Assembly (NCBI RefSeq): GCF_001677475.2
Contig: NZ_CP015229.1
Length of the DNA: 64,000 nucleotides
Reading direction: 5' to 3' (one strand)
DNA from: Escherichia coli
GTDB lineage: Bacteria; Pseudomonadota; Gammaproteobacteria; Enterobacterales; Enterobacteriaceae
In this document: positions 4,786 through 29,919 of the stretch, one piece after another
Numbering within the stretch: the stretch's first letter is position 1
Layout of the letters: the number at the start of each line of letters is the position of its first letter
Made by a program: the position numbers and the translations under genes
Notes under the pieces: generated by a model
What the model was told of the DNA's origin: nothing
The model's input: the letters and a program-made list of their open reading frames with translations, nothing else
Database searches by the model: none

Positions 4786-5130
4786 TTAACTGGCTTCGCC
4801 AAATAAACCATTTAAATAACGTTCAAGCGCAACACGCGAACTAAAGCCATGCGGGATACCGTAATGCTCGTGTCGCTCGCCTGCTAAATAGAGCGGAAAT
4901 TGTTGATAATGATCGCAAGTTTTAATATCGGAAGCGGGTTCAGCCAGTGTCGAACTACGTTCTTTTAATGTTGGATGAATTACCAGTGCGGTACGTCCCA
5001 TTCGCGCTTCGCGATTAACATAGACATAATTTTCCCCACGGCGGTAACCATACGCTTTCTGGGTTACCACATCGACAGTAAAACCGACTTTTTCAAGTAC
5101 GCGCGCCACCTCGTCTGGTCGTAAATACAT
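4786..5130 (-). CDS. ygaC: Uncharacterised protein YgaC
   Basis: 114-aa ORF; synteny. Confidence 0.75.
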
Positions 5131-5269
5131 ATTTGATCCTCGTTATTATCAACCGCGGGCCTACCTTACCTGATTGCGCATTCACAACGCTTTCAGAAAA
5201 GTCCATAAAGCCGCGATGAACCTCAGTTAAGAAAATTATGGTCTACACTGAAAATTACATCGAATTCTA

Positions 5270-6104: not shown

Positions 6105-6511
6105 GCCAGCTCGTCTACTTCTCCAGCAGCTCCGAAAACACGCAGCGTTTTATCGAACGTTTAGGTCTGCCCGCGGTGCGCATCCCGCTCAATGAGCGGG
6201 AACGGATTCAGGTAGACGGGCCTTACATCCTGATCGTGCCCTCTTACGGCGGCGGCGGTACGGCTGGCGCGGTGCCACGACAGGTAATCCGCTTTTTAAA
6301 CGACGAGCACAACCGGGCGTTGCTTCGCGGCGTTATTGCTTCGGGTAATCGCAACTTTGGTGAGGCGTATGGCCGCGCCGGAGATGTGATTGCTCAGAAA
6401 TGCGGCGTGCCGTGGCTGTACCGCTTTGAACTCATGGGTACGCAAAGCGATATCGAAAACGTTCGTAAAGGAGTAACTGAATTTTGGCAACGACAACCGC
6501 AGAATGCCTGA
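6101..6511 (+). CDS. nrdI: Flavodoxin-like protein NrdI
   Basis: 136-aa ORF overlapping the nrdH stop; synteny. Confidence 0.9.
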
Positions 6512-8628
6512 CGCAGGAAACGATGGATTACCACGCGCTGAATGCGATGCTTAACCTCTACGACAGCGCAGGTCGCATTCAGTTCGATAAAGACCGCCAG
6601 GCCGTTGACGCCTTTATTGCGACGCATGTGCGTCCGAACAGTGTGACCTTCGGTAGCCAGCAGCAGCGCCTGAACTGGCTGGTCAACGAAGGTTACTATG
6701 ATGAAAGCGTTCTTAATCGCTACTCTCGCGACTTTGTCATTACGCTGTTTGCCCACGCACACACCAGCGGTTTTCGTTTTCAGACATTCCTCGGAGCATG
6801 GAAGTTTTACACCAGCTATACGTTGAAGACATTCGACGGTAAGCGTTATCTGGAAGATTTTGCCGATCGAGTCACGATGGTGGCGCTGACGCTGGCACAA
6901 GGCGATGAAACACTGGCGACGCAACTGACCGATGAGATGCTGTCAGGACGCTTTCAGCCTGCAACACCGACATTCCTCAACTGTGGTAAGCAGCAGCGCG
7001 GCGAACTGGTTTCCTGTTTTTTGCTGCGTATTGAAGACAATATGGAGTCGATTGGTCGGGCGGTAAATTCCGCACTGCAACTGTCGAAACGCGGCGGCGG
7101 CGTAGCATTTTTGCTGTCGAATCTGCGGGAAGCGGGCGCGCCAATTAAACGTATTGAAAATCAATCTTCTGGCGTAATTCCGGTGATGAAAATGCTGGAA
7201 GACGCATTTTCCTATGCCAACCAACTCGGCGCGCGTCAGGGGGCTGGTGCAGTCTATTTACATGCTCATCATCCCGATATTCTGCGTTTTCTCGACACGA
7301 AACGGGAAAATGCCGACGAAAAAATCCGCATTAAAACACTGTCGCTTGGCGTGGTGATCCCGGATATCACTTTCCATCTGGCAAAAGAGAATGCGCAGAT
7401 GGCGCTGTTTTCGCCTTATGACGTAGAGCGAGTTTATGGCAAGCCGTTTGCCGATGTCGCCATTAGCGAACACTATGACGAACTGGTTGCCGATGAACGC
7501 ATCCGCAAAAAATACCTCAACGCCCGTGATTTCTTCCAGCGACTGGCAGAAATCCAGTTTGAGTCCGGCTATCCCTACATCATGTATGAAGACACGGTAA
7601 ACCGTGCTAACCCTATCGCCGGGCGCATAAATATGAGCAATCTTTGCTCAGAGATTTTGCAGGTTAACAGCGCATCAGAGTATAACGAGAATCTCGACTA
7701 TGCCCGCACAGGCCATGATATTTCCTGCAATTTAGGTTCGTTGAATATTGCGCACACCATGGATTCCCCGGACTTTGCCCGCACGGTAGAGACTGCCGTA
7801 CGCGGTTTAACGGCGGTGTCAGATATGAGTCATATCCGCAGCGTGCCGTCCATCGAAGCCGGAAATGCCGCCTCACACGCCATCGGGCTGGGGCAGATGA
7901 ATTTACACGGTTATCTGGCGCGAGAAGGCATCGCTTATGGTTCGCCGGAAGCACTGGATTTCACCAATCTCTATTTCTATACCATCACCTGGCACGCACT
8001 GCGTACCTCAATGTTGCTGGCACGCGAACGCGGTGAAACCTTCGCCGGGTTCAAACAGTCACGCTATGCCAGTGGTGAATATTTTAGCCAATATCTGCAA
8101 GGGAACTGGCAGCCGAAAACGGCGAAAGTTGGCGAACTGTTTACCCGTAGCGGTATTACGTTACCTACCCGTGAGATGTGGGCGCAGCTGCGCGACGACG
8201 TGATGTGCTACGGCATTTACAACCAGAATCTTCAGGCGGTGCCGCCAACCGGTTCTATCTCTTATATCAACCATGCTACGTCGAGTATTCATCCGATTGT
8301 GGCGAAAGTAGAGATACGCAAAGAGGGCAAAACAGGACGCGTTTACTACCCTGCCCCGTTTATGACTAACGAGAATCTGGCGCTGTATCAGGATGCTTAC
8401 GCAATCGGCGCAGAAAAGATCATCGACACCTACGCGGAAGCGACTCGCCATGTCGATCAGGGTTTGTCGCTGACGCTGTTTTTCCCCGATACCGCCACCA
8501 CTCGCGATATCAACAAAGCGCAGATTTACGCCTGGCGCAAGGGTATCAAAACGCTCTATTACATTCGCCTGCGTCAGATGGCGCTGGAAGGCACTGAAAT
8601 TGAAGGCTGCGTCTCCTGTGCACTTTAA
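6484..8628 (+). CDS. nrdE: Class Ib ribonucleotide reductase alpha subunit
   Basis: 714-aa ORF; RNR large-subunit features including a C-terminal CxxC pair (EGCVSCAL). Confidence 0.9.
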
Positions 8629-13267: not shown

Positions 13268-13352
13268 ATTCGGGCGGATAAGGCGTTTTTGCCTCATCCG
13301 CCGTTCTGTGCACAATGCCTGATGCGACGCTGGCGCGTCTTATCATGCCTAC
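13268..13352. repeat. REP/BIME-type palindromic repeats downstream of proX
   Basis: Two palindromic units incl. gcctgatgcgacgctggcgcgtcttatcatgcctaca. Confidence 0.6.
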
Positions 13353-15824: not shown

Positions 15825-15914
15825 CCCACAAGAATCATTTTTCTAAAACAATACATTTACTTTATTTGTCACTGTCGTTACTATATCGGCTGAAATTAAT
15901 GAGGTCATACCCAA

Positions 15915-16445
15915 ATGGATAGTTCGTTTACGCCCATTGAACAAATGCTAAAATTTCGCGCCAGCCGCCACGAAGATTTTCCTTATCAGGAGATCCTTCT
16001 GACTCGTCTTTGCATGCACATGCAAAGCAAGCTGCTGGAGAACCGCAATAAAATGCTGAAGGCTCAGGGGATTAACGAGACGTTGTTTATGGCGTTGATT
16101 ACGCTGGAGTCTCAGGAAAACCACAGTATTCAGCCTTCTGAATTGAGTTGTGCTCTTGGATCATCCCGTACCAACGCGACGCGTATTGCCGATGAACTGG
16201 AAAAACGCGGTTGGATCGAACGTCGTGAAAGCGATAACGATCGCCGCTGCCTGCATCTGCAATTAACGGAAAAAGGTCACGAGTTTTTGCGCGAGGTTTT
16301 ACCACCGCAGCATAACTGCCTGCATCAACTCTGGTCCGCGCTCAGCACAACAGAAAAAGATCAGCTCGAGCAAATCACCCGCAAATTGCTCTCCCGTCTC
16401 GACCAGATGGAACAAGACGGTGTGGTTCTCGAAGCGATGAGCTAA
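15915..16445 (+). CDS. mprA: MarR-family repressor MprA (EmrR)
   Basis: 176-aa ORF with MarR-type winged helix; immediately upstream of emrAB. Confidence 0.9.
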
Positions 16446-16492
16446 CGCGTCATCTCGCTCAAAAATCCAGATTTATAAAAGAAAAAATGACT

Positions 16493-16521
16493 GGCCAGCA
16501 TCGCAACATGCTGGCCTTTTT
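16493..16521 (+). terminator. Hairpin plus U-tract between mprA and emrA (terminator or attenuator)
   Basis: ggccagcat-cgcaac-atgctggcc perfect 9-bp stem followed by tttttgg. Confidence 0.5.
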
Positions 16522-16571
16522 GGCAAGCAGGTCGGCTCAGCCGATGAGTTAAGAAGATCGTGGAGAACAAT

Positions 16572-17744
16572 ATGAGCGCAAATGCGGAGACTCAAACCCC
16601 GCAGCAACCGGTAAAGAAGAGCGGCAAACGTAAGCGTCTGCTCCTCCTTCTCACCTTGCTCTTTATAATTATTGCCGTAGCGATAGGGATTTATTGGTTT
16701 TTGGTACTGCGTCATTTCGAAGAAACCGATGACGCATACGTGGCAGGGAATCAGATTCAAATTATGTCTCAGGTGTCTGGCAGCGTGACGAAAGTCTGGG
16801 CCGATAACACCGATTTTATAAAAGAAGGCGATGTTCTGGTCACTCTCGACCCGACAGATGCTCGCCAGGCGTTTGAAAAAGCCAAAACTGCACTGGCTTC
16901 CAGCGTTCGCCAAACCCACCAGCTGATGATTAACAGCAAACAGTTGCAGGCGAATATTGAGGTGCAAAAAATCGCCCTCGCGAAAGCACAAAGCGACTAC
17001 AACCGCCGAGTGCCGCTGGGCAATGCCAACCTGATTGGTCGCGAAGAGCTGCAACACGCCCGCGACGCCGTCACCAGTGCCCAGGCGCAACTGGACGTCG
17101 CTATTCAACAATACAATGCCAATCAGGCGATGATTCTGGGGACTAAACTGGAAGATCAGCCTGCCGTGCAACAGGCTGCCACCGAAGTACGTAACGCCTG
17201 GCTGGCGCTGGAGCGTACCCGTATTGTCAGTCCGATGACCGGTTATGTTTCCCGTCGTGCCGTGCAACCGGGTGCGCAAATTAGCCCAACGACGCCGCTG
17301 ATGGCGGTCGTTCCAGCCACCAATATGTGGGTGGATGCCAACTTTAAAGAGACGCAGATTGCCAATATGCGCATCGGTCAGCCGGTCACCATCACCACCG
17401 ATATTTACGGCGATGATGTGAAATACACCGGTAAAGTGGTTGGTCTGGATATGGGCACAGGTAGCGCATTCTCACTGCTTCCGGCGCAAAATGCGACCGG
17501 TAACTGGATCAAAGTCGTTCAGCGCCTGCCTGTGCGTATTGAACTGGACCAGAAACAGCTGGAGCAATACCCGCTGCGTATCGGTTTGTCCACGCTGGTG
17601 AGCGTCAATACCACTAACCGTGACGGTCAGGTACTGGCAAATAAAGTACGTTCCACACCGGTCGCGGTAAGTACCGCGCGTGAAATCAGCCTGGCACCTG
17701 TCAATAAACTGATCGACGATATCGTAAAAGCTAACGCTGGCTAA
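16572..17744 (+). CDS. emrA: Multidrug efflux membrane fusion protein EmrA
   Basis: ORF 16560..17744; recognised start MSANAETQTPQQ at internal Met. Confidence 0.9.
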   Translation: MSANAETQTPQQPVKKSGKRKRLLLLLTLLFIIIAVAIGIYWFLVLRHFEETDDAYVAGNQIQIMSQVSGSVTKVWADNTDFIKEGDVLVTLDPTDARQAFEKAKTALASSVRQTHQLMINSKQLQANIEVQKIALAKAQSDYNRRVPLGNANLIGREELQHARDAVTSAQAQLDVAIQQYNANQAMILGTKLEDQPAVQQAATEVRNAWLALERTRIVSPMTGYVSRRAVQPGAQISPTTPLMAVVPATNMWVDANFKETQIANMRIGQPVTITTDIYGDDVKYTGKVVGLDMGTGSAFSLLPAQNATGNWIKVVQRLPVRIELDQKQLEQYPLRIGLSTLVSVNTTNRDGQVLANKVRSTPVAVSTAREISLAPVNKLIDDIVKANAG

Positions 17745-17760
17745 TCCAGAGGTGCGTGTG

Positions 17761-19299
17761 ATGCAACAGCAAAAACCGCTGGAAGGCGCGCAACTGGTCA
17801 TTATGACGATTGCGCTGTCACTGGCGACATTCATGCAGGTGCTGGACTCCACCATTGCTAACGTGGCGATCCCCACTATCGCCGGGAATCTGGGCTCATC
17901 GCTCAGCCAGGGAACGTGGGTAATCACTTCTTTCGGGGTGGCGAATGCCATCTCGATCCCGCTTACCGGCTGGCTGGCAAAGCGCGTCGGGGAAGTGAAA
18001 CTGTTCCTCTGGTCAACCATCGCCTTTGCTATTGCGTCGTGGGCGTGTGGTGTCTCCAGCAGCCTGAATATGCTGATCTTCTTCCGCGTGATTCAGGGGA
18101 TTGTCGCCGGGCCGTTGATCCCGCTTTCGCAAAGTCTATTGCTGAATAACTACCCGCCAGCCAAACGCTCGATCGCGCTGGCACTGTGGTCGATGACGGT
18201 GATTGTCGCGCCAATTTGCGGCCCAATCCTCGGCGGGTATATCAGTGACAATTACCACTGGGGCTGGATATTCTTCATCAACGTACCGATTGGCGTGGCG
18301 GTGGTGTTGATGACACTGCAAACCCTGCGCGGACGCGAAACCCGCACCGAACGGCGGCGGATTGATGCCGTGGGGCTGGCACTGCTGGTTATTGGTATCG
18401 GCAGCCTACAGATTATGCTCGACCGCGGTAAAGAGCTGGACTGGTTTTCATCACAGGAAATTATCATCCTTACCGTGGTGGCAGTGGTGGCTATCTGCTT
18501 CCTGATTGTCTGGGAGCTGACCGACGATAACCCGATAGTCGATCTGTCGTTGTTTAAGTCGCGCAACTTCACCATCGGCTGTTTGTGTATCAGCCTCGCG
18601 TATATGCTCTACTTCGGCGCTATTGTTCTGCTGCCGCAGTTGTTGCAGGAGGTCTACGGTTACACGGCAACGTGGGCAGGTCTGGCCTCTGCGCCGGTAG
18701 GAATTATTCCGGTGATCCTGTCGCCGATTATCGGCCGCTTCGCGCATAAACTGGATATGCGGCGGCTGGTAACCTTCAGCTTTATTATGTATGCCGTCTG
18801 CTTCTACTGGCGTGCCTATACCTTTGAACCGGGTATGGATTTTGGCGCGTCGGCCTGGCCGCAGTTTATCCAGGGGTTTGCGGTGGCCTGCTTCTTTATG
18901 CCGCTGACCACCATTACGCTGTCTGGTTTGCCACCGGAACGACTGGCGGCAGCATCGAGCCTCTCCAACTTTACGCGAACGCTGGCGGGGTCTATCGGCA
19001 CGTCCATCACCACCACCATGTGGACCAACCGCGAGTCGATGCACCATGCGCAGTTGACTGAGTCGGTAAACCCGTTCAACCCGAATGCCCAGGCGATGTA
19101 CAGTCAACTGGAAGGGCTTGGGATGACGCAACAGCAGGCATCAGGCTGGATTGCCCAGCAGATCACCAATCAGGGGCTGATTATTTCCGCCAATGAGATC
19201 TTCTGGATGTCAGCCGGGATATTCCTCGTCCTGCTGGGGCTGGTGTGGTTTGCTAAACCGCCATTTGGCGCAGGTGGCGGCGGAGGCGGTGCGCACTAA
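17761..19299 (+). CDS. emrB: MFS multidrug efflux pump EmrB
   Basis: ORF 17752..19299; recognised start MQQQKPLEGAQL; Gly-rich C-terminal tail. Confidence 0.9.
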   Translation: MQQQKPLEGAQLVIMTIALSLATFMQVLDSTIANVAIPTIAGNLGSSLSQGTWVITSFGVANAISIPLTGWLAKRVGEVKLFLWSTIAFAIASWACGVSSSLNMLIFFRVIQGIVAGPLIPLSQSLLLNNYPPAKRSIALALWSMTVIVAPICGPILGGYISDNYHWGWIFFINVPIGVAVVLMTLQTLRGRETRTERRRIDAVGLALLVIGIGSLQIMLDRGKELDWFSSQEIIILTVVAVVAICFLIVWELTDDNPIVDLSLFKSRNFTIGCLCISLAYMLYFGAIVLLPQLLQEVYGYTATWAGLASAPVGIIPVILSPIIGRFAHKLDMRRLVTFSFIMYAVCFYWRAYTFEPGMDFGASAWPQFIQGFAVACFFMPLTTITLSGLPPERLAAASSLSNFTRTLAGSIGTSITTTMWTNRESMHHAQLTESVNPFNPNAQAMYSQLEGLGMTQQQASGWIAQQITNQGLIISANEIFWMSAGIFLVLLGLVWFAKPPFGAGGGGGGAH

Positions 19300-19309
19300 G
19301 GTTGTCAAA

Positions 19310-19331
19310 GGGAGCTGCGGCTCCCTTTTTA
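19310..19331 (+). terminator. Rho-independent terminator downstream of emrB
   Basis: gggagc-tgcg-gctccc stem followed by ttttt, directly after the emrB stop. Confidence 0.6.
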
Positions 19332-19556
19332 TTTGCTCATTCTGCAAACGGTTGTTTTATCCACTCATTCGGTGTATCTTTTCGCCGCCCCAAACTCTTC
19401 CATTCACCATTAACCGGTTCTGAGCATTCGCTCAGGTTGTTAATTCTCTTTTTCTTTCGCCCTCGCTTTCGCGGGTGATACTCACATTTTTCTTTTAACC
19501 CCATAACTCGCACCCTCGCGGGCGTACATTTATTACACACAAAATAATGGATTATT

Positions 19557-20264
19557 ATGAATACCCAACGAAAATACGGGAGAACCTGGCATTACCCTTT
19601 CTCCCCAGGCACCACCAGCGATGACCGTATTAACACCGATTACTGGCAGGATTTACAGGCCATCACGCAATTGGTGCACACAGAAAAACTCGACGGTGAA
19701 AATAACTGCCTTAACCGCTACGGCGTGTTTGCCCGTTCCCATGCCGCGCCTACGCAGTCGGCATGGACCTATAAAATTCGCCAACGCTGGCAACTGCTGA
19801 AAAACGATCTCGGCGATCTGGAGTTGTTTGGTGAAAATCTTTATGCCGTCCATTCGATTGAATATCGCGCCCTGGAGCAGGATTTTTATCTGTTTGCCGT
19901 TCGCTGCCAGGATATGTGGCTGAGCTGGGAAGAGGTGCAGTTTTACGCCGCTCTGTTTGATTTCCCCTGCGTTCCCGAAATCTCCGGCCCGCAGCCGGGG
20001 AATGATGAAAAAAGCTGGCAACGTGATTTTCTGGCGCTGACCAATGCGCGCGGCGCGTTCGATCCCTGGGATACGCAAACCGGGCAACCCTGTACGCTGG
20101 AAGGCATTGTCAGCCGAAATCGTGACGCGTTTTCCGTCGCTGACTTTTCGCATAACGTCTTCAAGTATGTGCGCAAAAATCATGTCAAAACCACCGTGCA
20201 CTGGAAACGACACTGGCAACGGGCGCGGATGGCCCATGAGTTCGCTTATGGAGAACAGTCATGA
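19557..20264 (+). CDS. Minimal ATP-dependent polynucleotide ligase (lysine nucleotidyltransferase family, RNA-ligase-like)
   Basis: 235-aa ORF; motif I K44-L-D-G47, motif III-like F91-G-E-N, motif IV E182-G-I-V, motif V K203-Y-V-R-K207 in canonical order. Confidence 0.7.
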
Positions 20265-21373
20265 TTTGGCAGCTTACCGACGACAAACGCTGGTCGACGC
20301 TACGCCAGCGTTTCAGTTGGGTTGAGGAGATGCATCACACGCCACAAGACCCGGAGCATCATGGTGAAGGTGACGTCGGCGTGCATACGGAAATGGTGCT
20401 TAACGCCCTCGTTACTCAGCCAGAATTCCAGCAACTCCCCGCTCAACAGCAGGAAGTTTTATGGGCGGCGGCGTTATTGCATGATGTTGAAAAGCGCAGC
20501 ACTACCGTGCAGGAAAACGGACGTATTCAGTCTCCAGGCCATGCTCGTCGGGGCGAACTGACGGCCCGACAAATTTTATGGCGCGATATCCCAACGCCGT
20601 TCGTGCTACGCGAGCAAATTGTTGCGCTGGTGCGTCTGCATGGGTTACCGCTATGGTTACTGGAACGTCCGGAACCGGAGCGTTTGCTGCTCACGGCTGC
20701 AATGCGCATCGACACGCGTCTGCTCGCTTTGCTTGCTCGTGCCGACCTGCTTGGTCGCCAAAGCCCGGATCAGCAATCAATGCTGGAACGCATCGATCTG
20801 TTCGAGCTGTTTTGCCATGAGCAACAATGCTGGGGAAAAGTGCGCCCGTTCGTTTCTGATTCCGCACGCTGGCACTACCTGACTCATGAGCAAAGTTCTC
20901 CTGATTTTGTTCCCTGGGGGGCTGAACCTTTTGAGGTTATTTTGCTGTGTGGCTTACCGGGTATGGGCAAAGATCGCTATATCAGTGAACAGTGCCAGGG
21001 AATGGACGTTATCAGCCTTGATGATATGCGGCGGCGAATCAATGCCAGCCCGGACGACAAAACCGCCACCGGGCGTATTGTGCAACAGGCAAAAGAAGAG
21101 GCGCGCGTTTTTTTACGCCAGAAAAAGCCGTTCATCTGGAATGCAACGAACATTACCCGCCAGCTGCGTAGCCAGCTCATCAGCTTGTTTACGGCCTACG
21201 GTGCAAGGGTAAAAATTATCTATCTGGAAGTGCCGTGGGCACAATGGAAGCAGCAAAATGCCAGGCGTGTGTATGCAGTTCCTGAAGTGGTCGTAATGCG
21301 GATGGCCTCAAGGCTGGAAGTTCCTCAACCTGATGAAGCACATAGCGTGGAGTATCGGGTGATTGAAAGGTAA
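20261..21373 (+). CDS. HD-domain phosphoesterase fused to a T4-Pnk-like 5'-OH polynucleotide kinase (HD-Pnk end-healing enzyme)
   Basis: 370-aa ORF; N-terminal HD signature ([11 protein letters not shown] ... LLHDVEK); C-terminal P-loop GLPGMGKD then [24 protein letters not shown] and [16 protein letters not shown], matching T4 Pnk as recalled; start overlaps the ligase stop (ATGA). Confidence 0.7.
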
Positions 21374-21379
21374 AAAAAC

Positions 21380-21416
21380 CGGGCGGTGCTGTCACCTGCC
21401 CGGCTTCTTTTGTTCC
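21380..21416. terminator. Probable bidirectional terminator between the HD-Pnk gene and convergent luxS
   Basis: A-run, ccgggcgg...cctgcccgg imperfect hairpin, then cttcttttgtt, in the 48-bp gap between two convergent stops. Confidence 0.5.
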
Positions 21417-21421
21417 ACTGA

Positions 21422-21937
21422 CTAAATGTGCAGTTCTTGCAACTTCTCTTTCGGCAGCGCCAGCTCTTCGTTGCTGTTGATGCGTACGTCACGTTCCAGA
21501 ATGCTACGCGCAATATCCTGCGCTTCCTGCAACGAGTGCATCTGGTAAGTGCCACACTGGTAGACGTTCAGTTCTGGGATCTGATTCTGATCCTGCACTT
21601 TCAGCACGTCTTCCATTGCCGCTTTCCAGGCATCAGCAACACGCTGCTCATCTGGCGTACCAATCAGACTCATATAAAAACCGGTGCGGCAGCCCATTGG
21701 CGAGATATCGATAATCTCTACACCATTACCGTTAAGATGGTTACGCATAAAACCAGCAAACAGGTGCTCCAGGGTATGGATCCCTCTTTCTGGCATCACT
21801 TCTTTGTTCGGCACGCAGAAGCGCAGATCGAACACGGTGATTGCGTCGCCATGCGGGGTGTTCATTGTTTTCGCCACCCGAACTGCAGGCGCTTCCATCC
21901 GGGTATGATCGACTGTGAAGCTATCTAACAACGGCAT
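21422..21937 (-). CDS. luxS: S-ribosylhomocysteine lyase LuxS
   Basis: 171-aa ORF; recognised LuxS sequence incl. metal-binding HTLEHL. Confidence 0.93.
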
Positions 21938-22005
21938 TTAGCCACCTCCGGTAATTTTTTTAAAAATTTTCTGAACTCTTTCTTCCCAGGCGAGTCTGAG
22001 TATAT

Positions 22006-22079
22006 GAAAGACGCGCATTTGTTATCATCATCCCTGAATTCAGAGATGAAATTTTGGCCACTCACGAGTGGCCTTTTTC
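22006..22079 (+). ncRNA. micA: MicA (SraD) small regulatory RNA
   Basis: Recognised sequence gaaagacgcgcatttgttatcatcatccctgaattcagagatgaaattttggccactcacgagtggcctttttc with terminal hairpin; between luxS and gshA on the opposite strand. Confidence 0.75.
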
Positions 22080-24917: not shown

Positions 24918-24994
24918 TGGTGCATCCGGGAGGATTCGAACCTCCGACCGCTCGGTTCGTAGCCGAGTACTCTATCCAGCTGAGCTACGGATGC
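24918..24994 (-). tRNA. argQ: tRNA-Arg (ACG), copy 1
   Basis: Reverse complement gives a 77-nt tRNA ending in CCA with recognised tRNA-Arg sequence; symbol assigned by position. Confidence 0.9.
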
Positions 24995-25096
24995 ATCGGG
25001 AAAACTTATTTTACTGCTGATATTGATACCGCTACTAAAGCCATATCAAATAAGAAAATCCATCTTAACCATCATCACTGATGATTACGGAGAATA

Positions 25097-25173
25097 TGGT
25101 GCATCCGGGAGGATTCGAACCTCCGACCGCTCGGTTCGTAGCCGAGTACTCTATCCAGCTGAGCTACGGATGC
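25097..25173 (-). tRNA. argZ: tRNA-Arg (ACG), copy 2
   Basis: Identical 77-nt repeat. Confidence 0.9.
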
Positions 25174-25235
25174 ATCGGGAAATTTATTTTACTGCTGATA
25201 TTGATACCGCTACTAAAGCCATATCAAGTAAGAGA

Positions 25236-25312
25236 TGGTGCATCCGGGAGGATTCGAACCTCCGACCGCTCGGTTCGTAGCCGAGTACTCTATCCAGCTG
25301 AGCTACGGATGC
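25236..25312 (-). tRNA. argY: tRNA-Arg (ACG), copy 3
   Basis: Identical 77-nt repeat. Confidence 0.9.
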
Positions 25313-25374
25313 ATCGGGAAACTTACTTTACTGCAGATTTTTTGATACCGCTACTAAAGCCGTATCAAGTAAGA

Positions 25375-25395
25375 GATGGTGCATCCGGGAGGATT
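25375..25395 (-). pseudogene. Truncated tRNA-Arg fragment (3'-terminal ~21 nt only)
   Basis: gatggtgcatccgggaggatt matches the 3' end of the tRNA-Arg repeat, then diverges into spacer-like sequence. Confidence 0.6.
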
Positions 25396-25511
25396 ACTCG
25401 CCTTGCGGCTCGCCCTTCGGGCCGTTGCTAAAGCAACGTTATCCTTCCTGGTGCTTGCGGCTAGTACCGCCACCTCTTCCACATCTTCATCGCTGAAGAT
25501 TACGGATAATA

Positions 25512-25588
25512 TGGTGCATCCGGGAGGATTCGAACCTCCGACCGCTCGGTTCGTAGCCGAGTACTCTATCCAGCTGAGCTACGGATGC
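25512..25588 (-). tRNA. argV: tRNA-Arg (ACG), copy 4
   Basis: Identical 77-nt repeat. Confidence 0.9.
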
Positions 25589-25591
25589 AAA

Positions 25592-25684
25592 TGGCGGTGA
25601 GGCGGGGATTCGAACCCCGGATGCAGCTTTTGACCGCATACTCCCTTAGCAGGGGAGCGCCTTCAGCCTCTCGGCCACCTCACC
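25592..25684 (-). tRNA. serV: tRNA-Ser (GCU)
   Basis: 93-nt long-variable-arm tRNA; reverse complement matches the tRNA-Ser(GCU) sequence as recalled. Confidence 0.88.
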
Positions 25685-29677: not shown

Positions 29678-29837
29678 GGCATATCCTTACAACTTAAAAA
29701 AGCAAAAGGGTCGCAGATGCGACCCAGGTTTTGCTGATAAACAGATTTAATAGTCAATGAGTGTGCAGAATGTTCCCGCAGGCCCAATTCGTTAGAAGAT
29801 CGAGGTGAGAGTAATTTTTCACGCCAGTGCTGACCTG

Positions 29838-29879
29838 TTCCCCTCACCCTCACCCTCTCCCCAAAGGGGCGAGGGGACC
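29838..29879. repeat. GC-rich imperfect palindromic element in the recA-recX spacer
   Basis: ttcccctcaccctcaccctctccccaaaggggcgaggggacc. Confidence 0.5.
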
Positions 29880-29919
29880 GTCCGTGCACACATTATCTAT
29901 TATCATCAATAACGAACGA

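Follow-up and report, generated by a model that had tools for sequence, protein, structure and literature searches.

A stretch of 64,000 nucleotides from Escherichia coli (RefSeq assembly GCF_001677475.2, contig NZ_CP015229.1), referred to as the window hereafter, carries between the core genes emrB and luxS a cassette of two genes for a predicted RNA ligase (LIG) and a predicted RNA end-healing enzyme (HD-Pnk). This locus raises the question of whether the cassette is a recently acquired island or an old resident of its slot. An earlier note on this DNA had proposed either an old acquisition or an ancestral locus and not a recent island, and this proposal is supported by the occupation of the same slot in several genera, by deep synonymous divergence (dS) and by visible decay. 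We consider it probable that the cassette is a self-contained, non-mobile operon, which is an old emrB/luxS resident of Enterobacteriaceae with its own promoter and leader and an inferred role in RNA repair, and that it is not an island. This operon would be composed, in order, of the emrB terminator, a weak sigma-70 promoter, a structured leader of approximately 170 nt, LIG, HD-Pnk and a bidirectional terminator shared with luxS. Its presence or absence within a species would result from repeated loss by internal deletion, frameshift or replacement of the whole spacer and, by a second route, from recombination between homologous flanking core genes that swaps alleles as a whole.

The gene order at the locus is emrR-emrA-emrB (emrB ends at 19299), a non-coding stretch of 257 bp, LIG, HD-Pnk, the convergent luxS, MicA and gshA. 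The features that define the locus are as follows.

19300-21416, plus strand: allele-specific segment of 2,117 bp, which stands where K-12/BL21-type E. coli have a 63-bp emrB-luxS spacer.
19300-19556: upstream non-coding region, exactly 257 bp, GC content 0.444.
19307-19333, plus strand: predicted intrinsic terminator of emrB, termed type A (stem 19307-19315 / 19320-19328, followed by a T-run).
19557-20264, plus strand: LIG, an ATP-dependent RNA ligase-like protein of 235 residues, with ligase motif I (K44-L-D-G) seen in the translation.
20261-21373, plus strand: HD-Pnk, a protein of 370 residues with a predicted HD phosphoesterase domain at the N-terminus and a predicted P-loop polynucleotide kinase domain at the C-terminus.
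21373-21415, both strands: predicted bidirectional intrinsic terminator for the cassette and the convergent luxS (stem 21380-21404, flanked by A7 and, on the opposite side, by a T-rich tract).
21422-21937, minus strand: luxS, 48 bp beyond the end of HD-Pnk and convergent with the cassette.

The window is collinear with BL21(DE3) from 1 to 41508 at approximately 98% identity, and 19301-21416 is the sole large indel in this region. Alignment of the junctions against K-12-type genomes defines both breakpoints. Homology to the K-12/BL21 allele stops exactly at the emrB stop codon (between 19299 and 19300) and returns at approximately 21417, 6 nt ahead of the luxS stop codon. In the K-12/BL21-type empty allele, the spacer is an unrelated sequence of 63 bp (1601-1663 of the BL21 site L001) that has a hairpin of its own, AGCCAGTTCATTTGAACTGGCT and then T6. 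Because this spacer differs, the occupied and empty E. coli alleles are related by replacement, and not by a clean indel or simple excision.

The emrB terminator hairpin, right after which the earlier note had let the insert start, is real, but is located at 19307-19328 and not at 19310-19331, a shift of 3 nt. It consists of AAAGGGAGC-TGCG-GCTCCCTTT with 9 pairs, followed by TTATTTG, and folds as RNA with -15.7 kcal/mol (z -3.3). With its GC-rich stem-loop and the U-tract UUUUUAUUU, this hairpin has the composition of an intrinsic terminator, and termination is predicted at this site. The hairpin said to be shared with luxS is also found, as CCGGGCGGTG-CUGU-CACC(U)GCCCGG at 21380-21404; A7 precedes it and CTTCTTTTGTT comes after. 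Its folding energy is -18 kcal/mol on the plus strand, where CUUCUUUUGUU follows it, and -25.8 kcal/mol (z -6.0) on the luxS strand, where U7 follows, so that its predicted terminator activity is bidirectional. Both hairpins flank the cassette genes, but neither is an edge of the insert, because homology to K-12/BL21 breaks at the emrB stop codon and at approximately 21417, and both hairpins therefore sit inside the allele-specific segment.

The type A terminator is common to all occupied Escherichia alleles, a cassette remnant in E. albertii, Klebsiella spallanzanii and an enteric genome (L019). Hairpins related to the luxS-side terminator are present at the same position in other Escherichia, K. 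spallanzanii and L019. In contrast, the K-12-type empty allele and all Salmonella alleles, occupied or empty, carry a homologous hairpin, termed type B, that is not homologous to type A; in Salmonella this emrB terminator is located at about 5040-5085 of L022-L029. The type B hairpin shared with Salmonella is the sole homology of the K-12 63-bp spacer beyond chance. The possibility that this spacer is a relic of the cassette was rejected, because its 14-mer and 12-mer matches inside HD-Pnk of Chania are at chance level (E 0.06 and about 1).

Signals of mobility are absent from the locus. No integrase, transposase, recombinase or insertion sequence (IS) is found within approximately 19-20 kb of the cassette, the annotated BL21 neighbours are all core genes, and the insert holds just two open reading frames (ORFs), both for predicted repair enzymes. 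The search of 18800-22000 for direct or inverted repeats bracketing the cassette gives only short, imperfect matches at chance level. No tRNA or tmRNA target is present at the junctions; the only tRNAs are those of the argQZYV-serV cluster (24918-25684), which lies 3.5 kb off and is also present in the cassette-less BL21 genome. Thus, the repeat search, the synteny with BL21 and the nature of the neighbours support the earlier statement that the flanks contain none of these elements. PADLOC 2.0 gives zero families at E <= 0.01 for LIG and HD-Pnk.

The base composition is also native, as had been judged by eye. GC content, GC content at third codon positions (GC3) and the likelihood of codon usage were compared with those of the 48 ORFs of the window (mean GC 0.534 +/- 0.031, GC3 0.587 +/- 0.060). 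LIG has a GC content of 0.527 (z -0.22), GC3 of 0.593 (z +0.10) and a codon-usage z of +0.44, and HD-Pnk has a GC content of 0.538 (z +0.15), GC3 of 0.553 (z -0.57) and a codon-usage z of -1.37. Both genes lie inside the distribution of the 48 ORFs, and no compositional discontinuity is detected (|z| <= 0.6 for GC and GC3 of both genes).

Relatives were collected from GTDB species representatives in a single scan and then through look-ups with exact protein sequences. The cassette is present in 998 of the 5426 complete E. coli genomes (18%), always on the chromosome, in single copy and never on plasmids. The K-12-type empty spacer is present in 4313 of the 5426 (approximately 80%), O157:H7 and BL21 included, so that the empty state is the more common one and is not peculiar to the K-12 lineage, to which the earlier note, as one of its two options, had assigned a loss. 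The emrB-cassette-luxS arrangement is also found in two representatives of Escherichia cryptic clades (L005, L006), in K. spallanzanii (L007 and 8/8 further places), in the enteric L019 and, as a polymorphism, in Salmonella enterica, in which some strains with an identical EmrB protein are occupied and some are empty. The look-up with the LuxS protein of K. spallanzanii gives occupied loci only, and no empty Klebsiella allele is found in this way. A metagenome scan with the leader motif gives eight more contigs with emrB, leader and LIG, from at least two further lineages. The nearest relatives outside the enterobacteria are those from Bacteroidota, with identities of 62-65% for LIG and 54% for HD-Pnk (64% and 54%, respectively, for the homologues from Niastella).

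Between the window and Klebsiella or Salmonella, the dS value determined by the Nei-Gojobori method is 1.5-1.6 for LIG, saturated for HD-Pnk, and 0.86-1.7 for the full-length flanking genes. Because dS of the cassette is equal to or higher than that of the flanks, a recent transfer between genera is excluded. The ratio of nonsynonymous to synonymous divergence (dN/dS) is 0.03-0.11 for the cassette genes, indicating that they are under purifying selection.

Decay of the cassette is visible in several lineages. In E. albertii, the type A terminator and approximately 12 nt are followed only by the last 88 codons of HD-Pnk. This deletion is approximately 1.77 kb, corresponding roughly to 19342-21112 of the window; repetitive extragenic palindromic (REP) elements are inserted between the remnant and luxS, and the deletion end points lie outside them. 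Within E. coli, LIG is frameshifted in CFT073 (L031), HD-Pnk contains an internal stop codon in O145 RM8988-C1 (L032) and is frameshifted in 2017-02-2CC (L045), and a deletion extends from ygaY through emrRAB into LIG in Ecol_542 (L030). These four E. coli inactivations are independent of one another. The cassette is intact in all six occupied strains of a sample taken at even steps down the match ranking without selection for defects, ST131 among them.

The 257-bp region upstream of LIG had been named as the place for the promoter, and a position-conserved sigma-70-like promoter and a conserved leader are indeed predicted in it. The features of this region are as follows.

19352-19380, plus strand: putative sigma-70 promoter, with -35 hexamer TTGTTT (19352-19357), a 17-nt spacer and -10 hexamer TATCTT (19375-19380).
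19381-19556, plus strand: conserved non-coding leader, a predicted 5' untranslated region of approximately 170 nt.
19419-19436, plus strand: leader hairpin 1 (TCTGAGC-ATTC-GCTCAGG), with a U-rich tract behind it, which may serve as an attenuator or in processing.
19458-19477, plus strand: leader hairpin 2 (CGCCC-N10-GGGTG).
19546-19551, plus strand: weak Shine-Dalgarno (SD) sequence AAUGGA, 5 nt ahead of the ATG, predicted to pair with UCCAUU at 19399-19404.

The promoter hexamers are invariant and the length of the spacer is fixed at 17 nt, with a variable spacer sequence, in Escherichia, Klebsiella, Salmonella, L058 and L063. Invariant hexamers separated by a variable spacer of fixed length are the classic footprint of a promoter, and the transcription start site is inferred to be near 19387. 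At the homologous position, L019 contains TTGCAA-17-TATTAT (9/12 matches to the consensus) and L020 contains TTGTCA-17-TATTAT (10/12). The match of the E. coli promoter is only 7/12, which suggests that basal expression is probably low. A second candidate at 19503-19530 (7/12) was rejected, because its hexamers are not conserved. Inspection of the region by eye only reveals no convincing or conserved motif for sigma-54, sigma-32 or sigma-E and no LexA box.

Conservation across genera extends in blocks from approximately 19352 to the ATG, and the leader contains the invariant blocks CGCCGCCCC (19383-19391), TTCCATTCAC (19398-19407) and AATAATGGATTAT (19543-19555). The identity of the leader is 98.5-99.5% in most Escherichia pairs, which is higher than that of the adjacent coding sequence, and approximately 77-79% across genera, where synonymous sites are saturated. 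The minimum free energy (MFE) of the whole leader is -34.7 kcal/mol (z -3.3). Hairpin 1, which is flagged by the scan for terminator-like structures, folds with -11.6 kcal/mol (z -3.1). Its CTGAGC/GCTCAG stem is unchanged in 15 leaders with seven distinct loops of 4-5 nt, and its closing U.G pair is changed to G.U in L019. The second pair of hairpin 2 shows covariation: Escherichia has G.U, Klebsiella, Salmonella and the L056 group have A-U, and L058 has G-C. The loop of this hairpin varies in sequence and in length (7-10 nt), and the hairpin is missing in L019. The pairing of the SD sequence with UCCAUU is predicted both by MFE folding and by RNAalifold, is complete in 13 of the 15 leaders and is kept through G.U in L019. 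However, its central pair is broken without compensation in two natural variants, L060 and L058, and for this reason the SD-sequestering pairing has been downgraded to a weak candidate feature of the leader.

The leader is retained in L020, in which the cassette occupies a different genomic context. The leader thus accompanies the genes, which indicates that it belongs to the cassette. Taken together with the weak promoter, the attenuator-like element formed by the hairpin and U-tract suggests that the leader probably keeps expression low and conditional. Rfam 15 gives no match to the leader, either for the region at E <= 1 or for the whole window at gathering scores; the Rfam match nearest to 19300-19556 is MicA (22006-22077). 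Small ORFs in the leader (58 residues on the plus strand and 67 residues on the minus strand) were rejected as genes, because both frames are broken by 1-nt and 9-nt indels between genera. As a separate observation, the E. coli-like metagenome contig L060 carries a lipoprotein-like ORF of 466 residues (6236-7636, minus strand) between emrB and the cassette leader, and its SD region reads AAAGGA instead of AATGGA.

Both proteins show the hallmarks of nucleic-acid end processing. LIG matches the Pfam family RNA_ligase (PF09414) with an E-value of 4.4e-28, and its orthologues carry the RefSeq name 'RNA ligase family protein'. No NCBIfam model matches LIG, and its only PDB matches are hemocyanins, which are judged to be spurious. 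The LIG stop and HD-Pnk start codons overlap by 4 nt (ATGA). HD-Pnk matches the Pfam family AAA_33 at residues 226-355 (E 3.5e-30) and, weakly, HD at residues 62-139 (E 0.021), and its kinase matches TIGR04075, the NCBIfam model for the bacterial Pnkp kinase region (E 7e-8). It also matches PDB chains 4gp6, 4gp7, 4jst and 4mde with an E-value of 3e-4; the depositors named these chains 'Metallophosphoesterase', and we take them to be the kinase domain of Clostridium thermocellum Pnkp. In a comparison with 10 homologues from Enterobacterales, Bacteroidota and Lachnospiraceae, residues H34, H42, H74-D75, H127 and D162 of the HD domain and G236-K237-D238 and D254 of the kinase domain are unchanged in 10/10.

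The upstream ligase-like ORF overlapping an ORF for an HD domain and a P-loop 5'-OH kinase matches, by description, the LIG/HD-Pnk pair of Runella slithyformis (Munir and Shuman 2017), for which the account given in PMC6097658 likewise describes a ligase-like ORF whose 3' end overlaps the HD-Pnk start. The domain content and this published cluster make it likely that the cassette functions in the repair of breaks in RNA (or nucleic acids) by end healing and sealing. In this scheme, 2',3'-cyclic phosphate or 3'-phosphate ends would be cleared by the HD domain and 5'-OH ends phosphorylated by the P-loop kinase, and the ligase would join the ends via a lysyl-AMP intermediate formed at K44.

Several observations weigh against an old operon of this kind, or against parts of it. 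According to PMC6097658, Runella LIG self-adenylylates, yet none of the 3'-OH/5'-PO4 substrates described there as tested is sealed, so that the sealing step and its substrate stay predictions. The cassette promoter has only 7 of 12 matches to the consensus and is missed by a stock promoter scan. By its cassette proteins, Salmonella is nearest to K. spallanzanii and Escherichia is equally far from all, whereas by emrA and emrB Escherichia groups with Salmonella; strictly vertical descent is not established, as the distances between cassette proteins agree only in part with those of the flanks. The two E. coli alleles are not linked by one simple deletion, because type A goes with Klebsiella and L019 and type B with Salmonella. 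The cassette is located at other chromosomal sites in Yersiniaceae, Morganellaceae and Budviciaceae (Serratia, Chania, Xenorhabdus and Pragia) and also in L020, without mobility genes at these sites, which indicates that it has moved at least several times. Finally, K. pneumoniae and Enterobacter carry a gene for an AraC-type regulator and a LeuA-like gene beside luxS (L052 and L053, 3069-5491 in both), and metagenomic L066 (523-5380) carries, between emrB and luxS, the cassette followed by AraC-type and LeuA-like genes and an ORF of 555 residues resembling coiled-coil and FKBP proteins. Other cargo adjoining luxS indicates that the emrB/luxS slot is also an insertion hot spot.

Some of these observations would be expected if the type B empty spacer is ancestral, and the cassette entered an early Escherichia ancestor together with type A by recombination from a Klebsiella-like enteric, and entered Salmonella separately, with the convergent emrB/luxS intergenic region serving as a recurrent insertion hot spot. 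We regard such an ancient gain, which would itself count as an old acquisition, as unlikely. It agrees with the presence of type B in empty E. coli and all Salmonella and of type A in occupied Escherichia, K. spallanzanii and L019, with the other cargo in the slot, with the cassette at other sites in other families, and with the slightly higher identity of Escherichia LIG and HD-Pnk to those of K. spallanzanii (86.4% and 77.4%) than to those of Salmonella (83.0% and 75.6%), the reverse of what the flanks show. However, E. albertii, the two cryptic-clade representatives and E. coli all carry the cassette or what remains of it, so that any gain is older than the radiation of Escherichia. In addition, synonymous sites have reached saturation between genera, no foreign flank can be seen because the final 100 bp of emrB, which adjoin the junction, match those of some empty strains exactly, and Salmonella pairs the type B terminator with the cassette.

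A still less credible course, turnover of the cassette at its slot by REP elements or bacterial interspersed mosaic elements (BIMEs), is very unlikely. It is suggested by Salmonella, in which occupied alleles carry the REP-like TGCCGGATGACGGCTT on both sides of the cassette (L022 5083-5100, 7246-7262) and empty alleles hold a BIME in the slot (L024-L029, about 5075-5180), by the REP elements between the E. albertii remnant and luxS, and by L027, in which the right-hand REP element is the insertion site of an IS110-family transposase. However, REP elements are absent from either junction in the window and from the junctions of any E. coli occupied allele, the empty Salmonella alleles differ from the product expected of recombination between two flanking repeats, and, as described above, the E. 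albertii deletion does not end in REP elements. A recent island or integrative element, gained by site-specific recombination or transposition, is already effectively refuted, and we assign it hardly any probability. The patchy distribution within E. coli would accord with it, as would the Bacteroidota relatives, which suggest an ancient transfer across phyla, but it is contradicted by the lack of an integrase, transposase, IS ends, direct repeats or a tRNA junction, by the native GC, GC3 and codon usage, by the single, never plasmid-borne copy, by the deep divergence in the same slot across genera, and by the lack of a PADLOC match. An operon long resident between emrB and luxS in Enterobacteriaceae is the reading we retain.

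By its sequence, this operon belongs to the known LIG/HD-Pnk kind. It differs from the Runella cluster in that neither Tpt1 nor a methyltransferase-HIT (MTase-HIT) pair is adjacent to it in the window, and in its enterobacterial setting, with a fixed emrB/luxS slot and its own conserved promoter and leader; the enterobacterial proteins are known from sequence. HD-Pnk resembles the bacterial Pnkp/Hen1 and T4 Pnk/Rnl systems in that its kinase is related to bacterial Pnkp and in the logic of healing before sealing. Unlike in these systems, an HD domain, and not a phosphatase of the calcineurin or DxD type, is predicted to carry out 3' healing, the ligase is a small protein of its own, and no Hen1 methyltransferase is present in the cassette. 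What is new here is the fixed slot across genera, the evidence of recurrent decay and the conserved, undescribed leader. A literature search gives nothing that connects emrB, luxS and RNA ligase.

The cassette also resembles the RtcB2-PrfH module, an accessory RNA-repair operon that is patchy and decayed in some E. coli (PMC9304027, PMC9223846). The RtcB2-PrfH module repairs 16S rRNA cut by colicin E3, and K-12 carries a deletion within rtcB2-prfH (PMC9304027). Unlike the predicted LIG/HD-Pnk pathway, RtcB joins 3'-P and 5'-OH ends directly, using GTP. The two systems are also related by location. The cassette stands alone in the window, whereas LIG-HD-Pnk is located directly downstream of rtcB2-prfH, between acnB and yacL, in Serratia (L033 2187-5819) and Chania (L034 2203-5819). 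In this arrangement, four RNA-repair genes form a cluster that connects the cassette with the 16S rRNA repair module, and the contiguity in Yersiniaceae makes ribotoxin damage a candidate class of substrates.

The emrB/luxS slot resembles strain-variable hot spots, in that variable cargo is located between convergent core genes without mobility genes and alleles would be exchanged via flanking homology. It differs from typical hot spots with fast turnover, because the same cargo, deeply diverged, persists at this position in several genera. We regard the locus as a deeply rooted accessory operon, which is absent from most laboratory and many pathogenic E. coli, among them K-12, BL21 and O157:H7, and intact in B2 strains such as ST131. 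With occupied and empty strains, isogenic-like material exists in nature for work on this heal-and-seal RNA repair pair.

It is conceivable, but in our estimate quite improbable, that the leader acts as a cis-regulatory RNA not described before, through which RNA damage or translation stress would control expression of the repair enzymes, and that fluctuating exposure to ribotoxins keeps the emrB/luxS polymorphism. The features that would serve such a role are the weak promoter, hairpin 1 with its U-tract, the covarying hairpin 2 and the arm that may sequester the SD sequence. Expression might then be limited by attenuation or by occlusion of the SD sequence and relieved by cleavage of the leader or by ribosome stalling. 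If this is the case, the presence and absence of the cassette at emrB/luxS would be a long-lived polymorphism in E. coli and Salmonella, with ribotoxins such as colicins and contact-dependent inhibition (CDI) toxins as the agents of exposure.

Several minor features concern the strain and the remainder of the alignment with BL21. The emrRAB region (15900-19299) has an identity of at most 98.9% to every complete RefSeq E. coli genome, and the best full-length match of the cassette among these genomes is 97.6%, so that the strain belongs to a somewhat divergent Escherichia lineage that is absent from the complete genomes. Between proX and ygaY, Rfam detects naRNA4, a REP-derived nucleoid-associated RNA, at 13272-13349 (69.7 bits), and the alignment with BL21 shows a small rearrangement at this site. 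Approximately 190 bp are extra between recX and recA as compared with BL21 (29726-29915), and this segment contains CCCCTCACCCTCACCCTCTCCCCAAAGGGGCGAGGGGAC, which presumably resembles a box C-type intergenic repeat.

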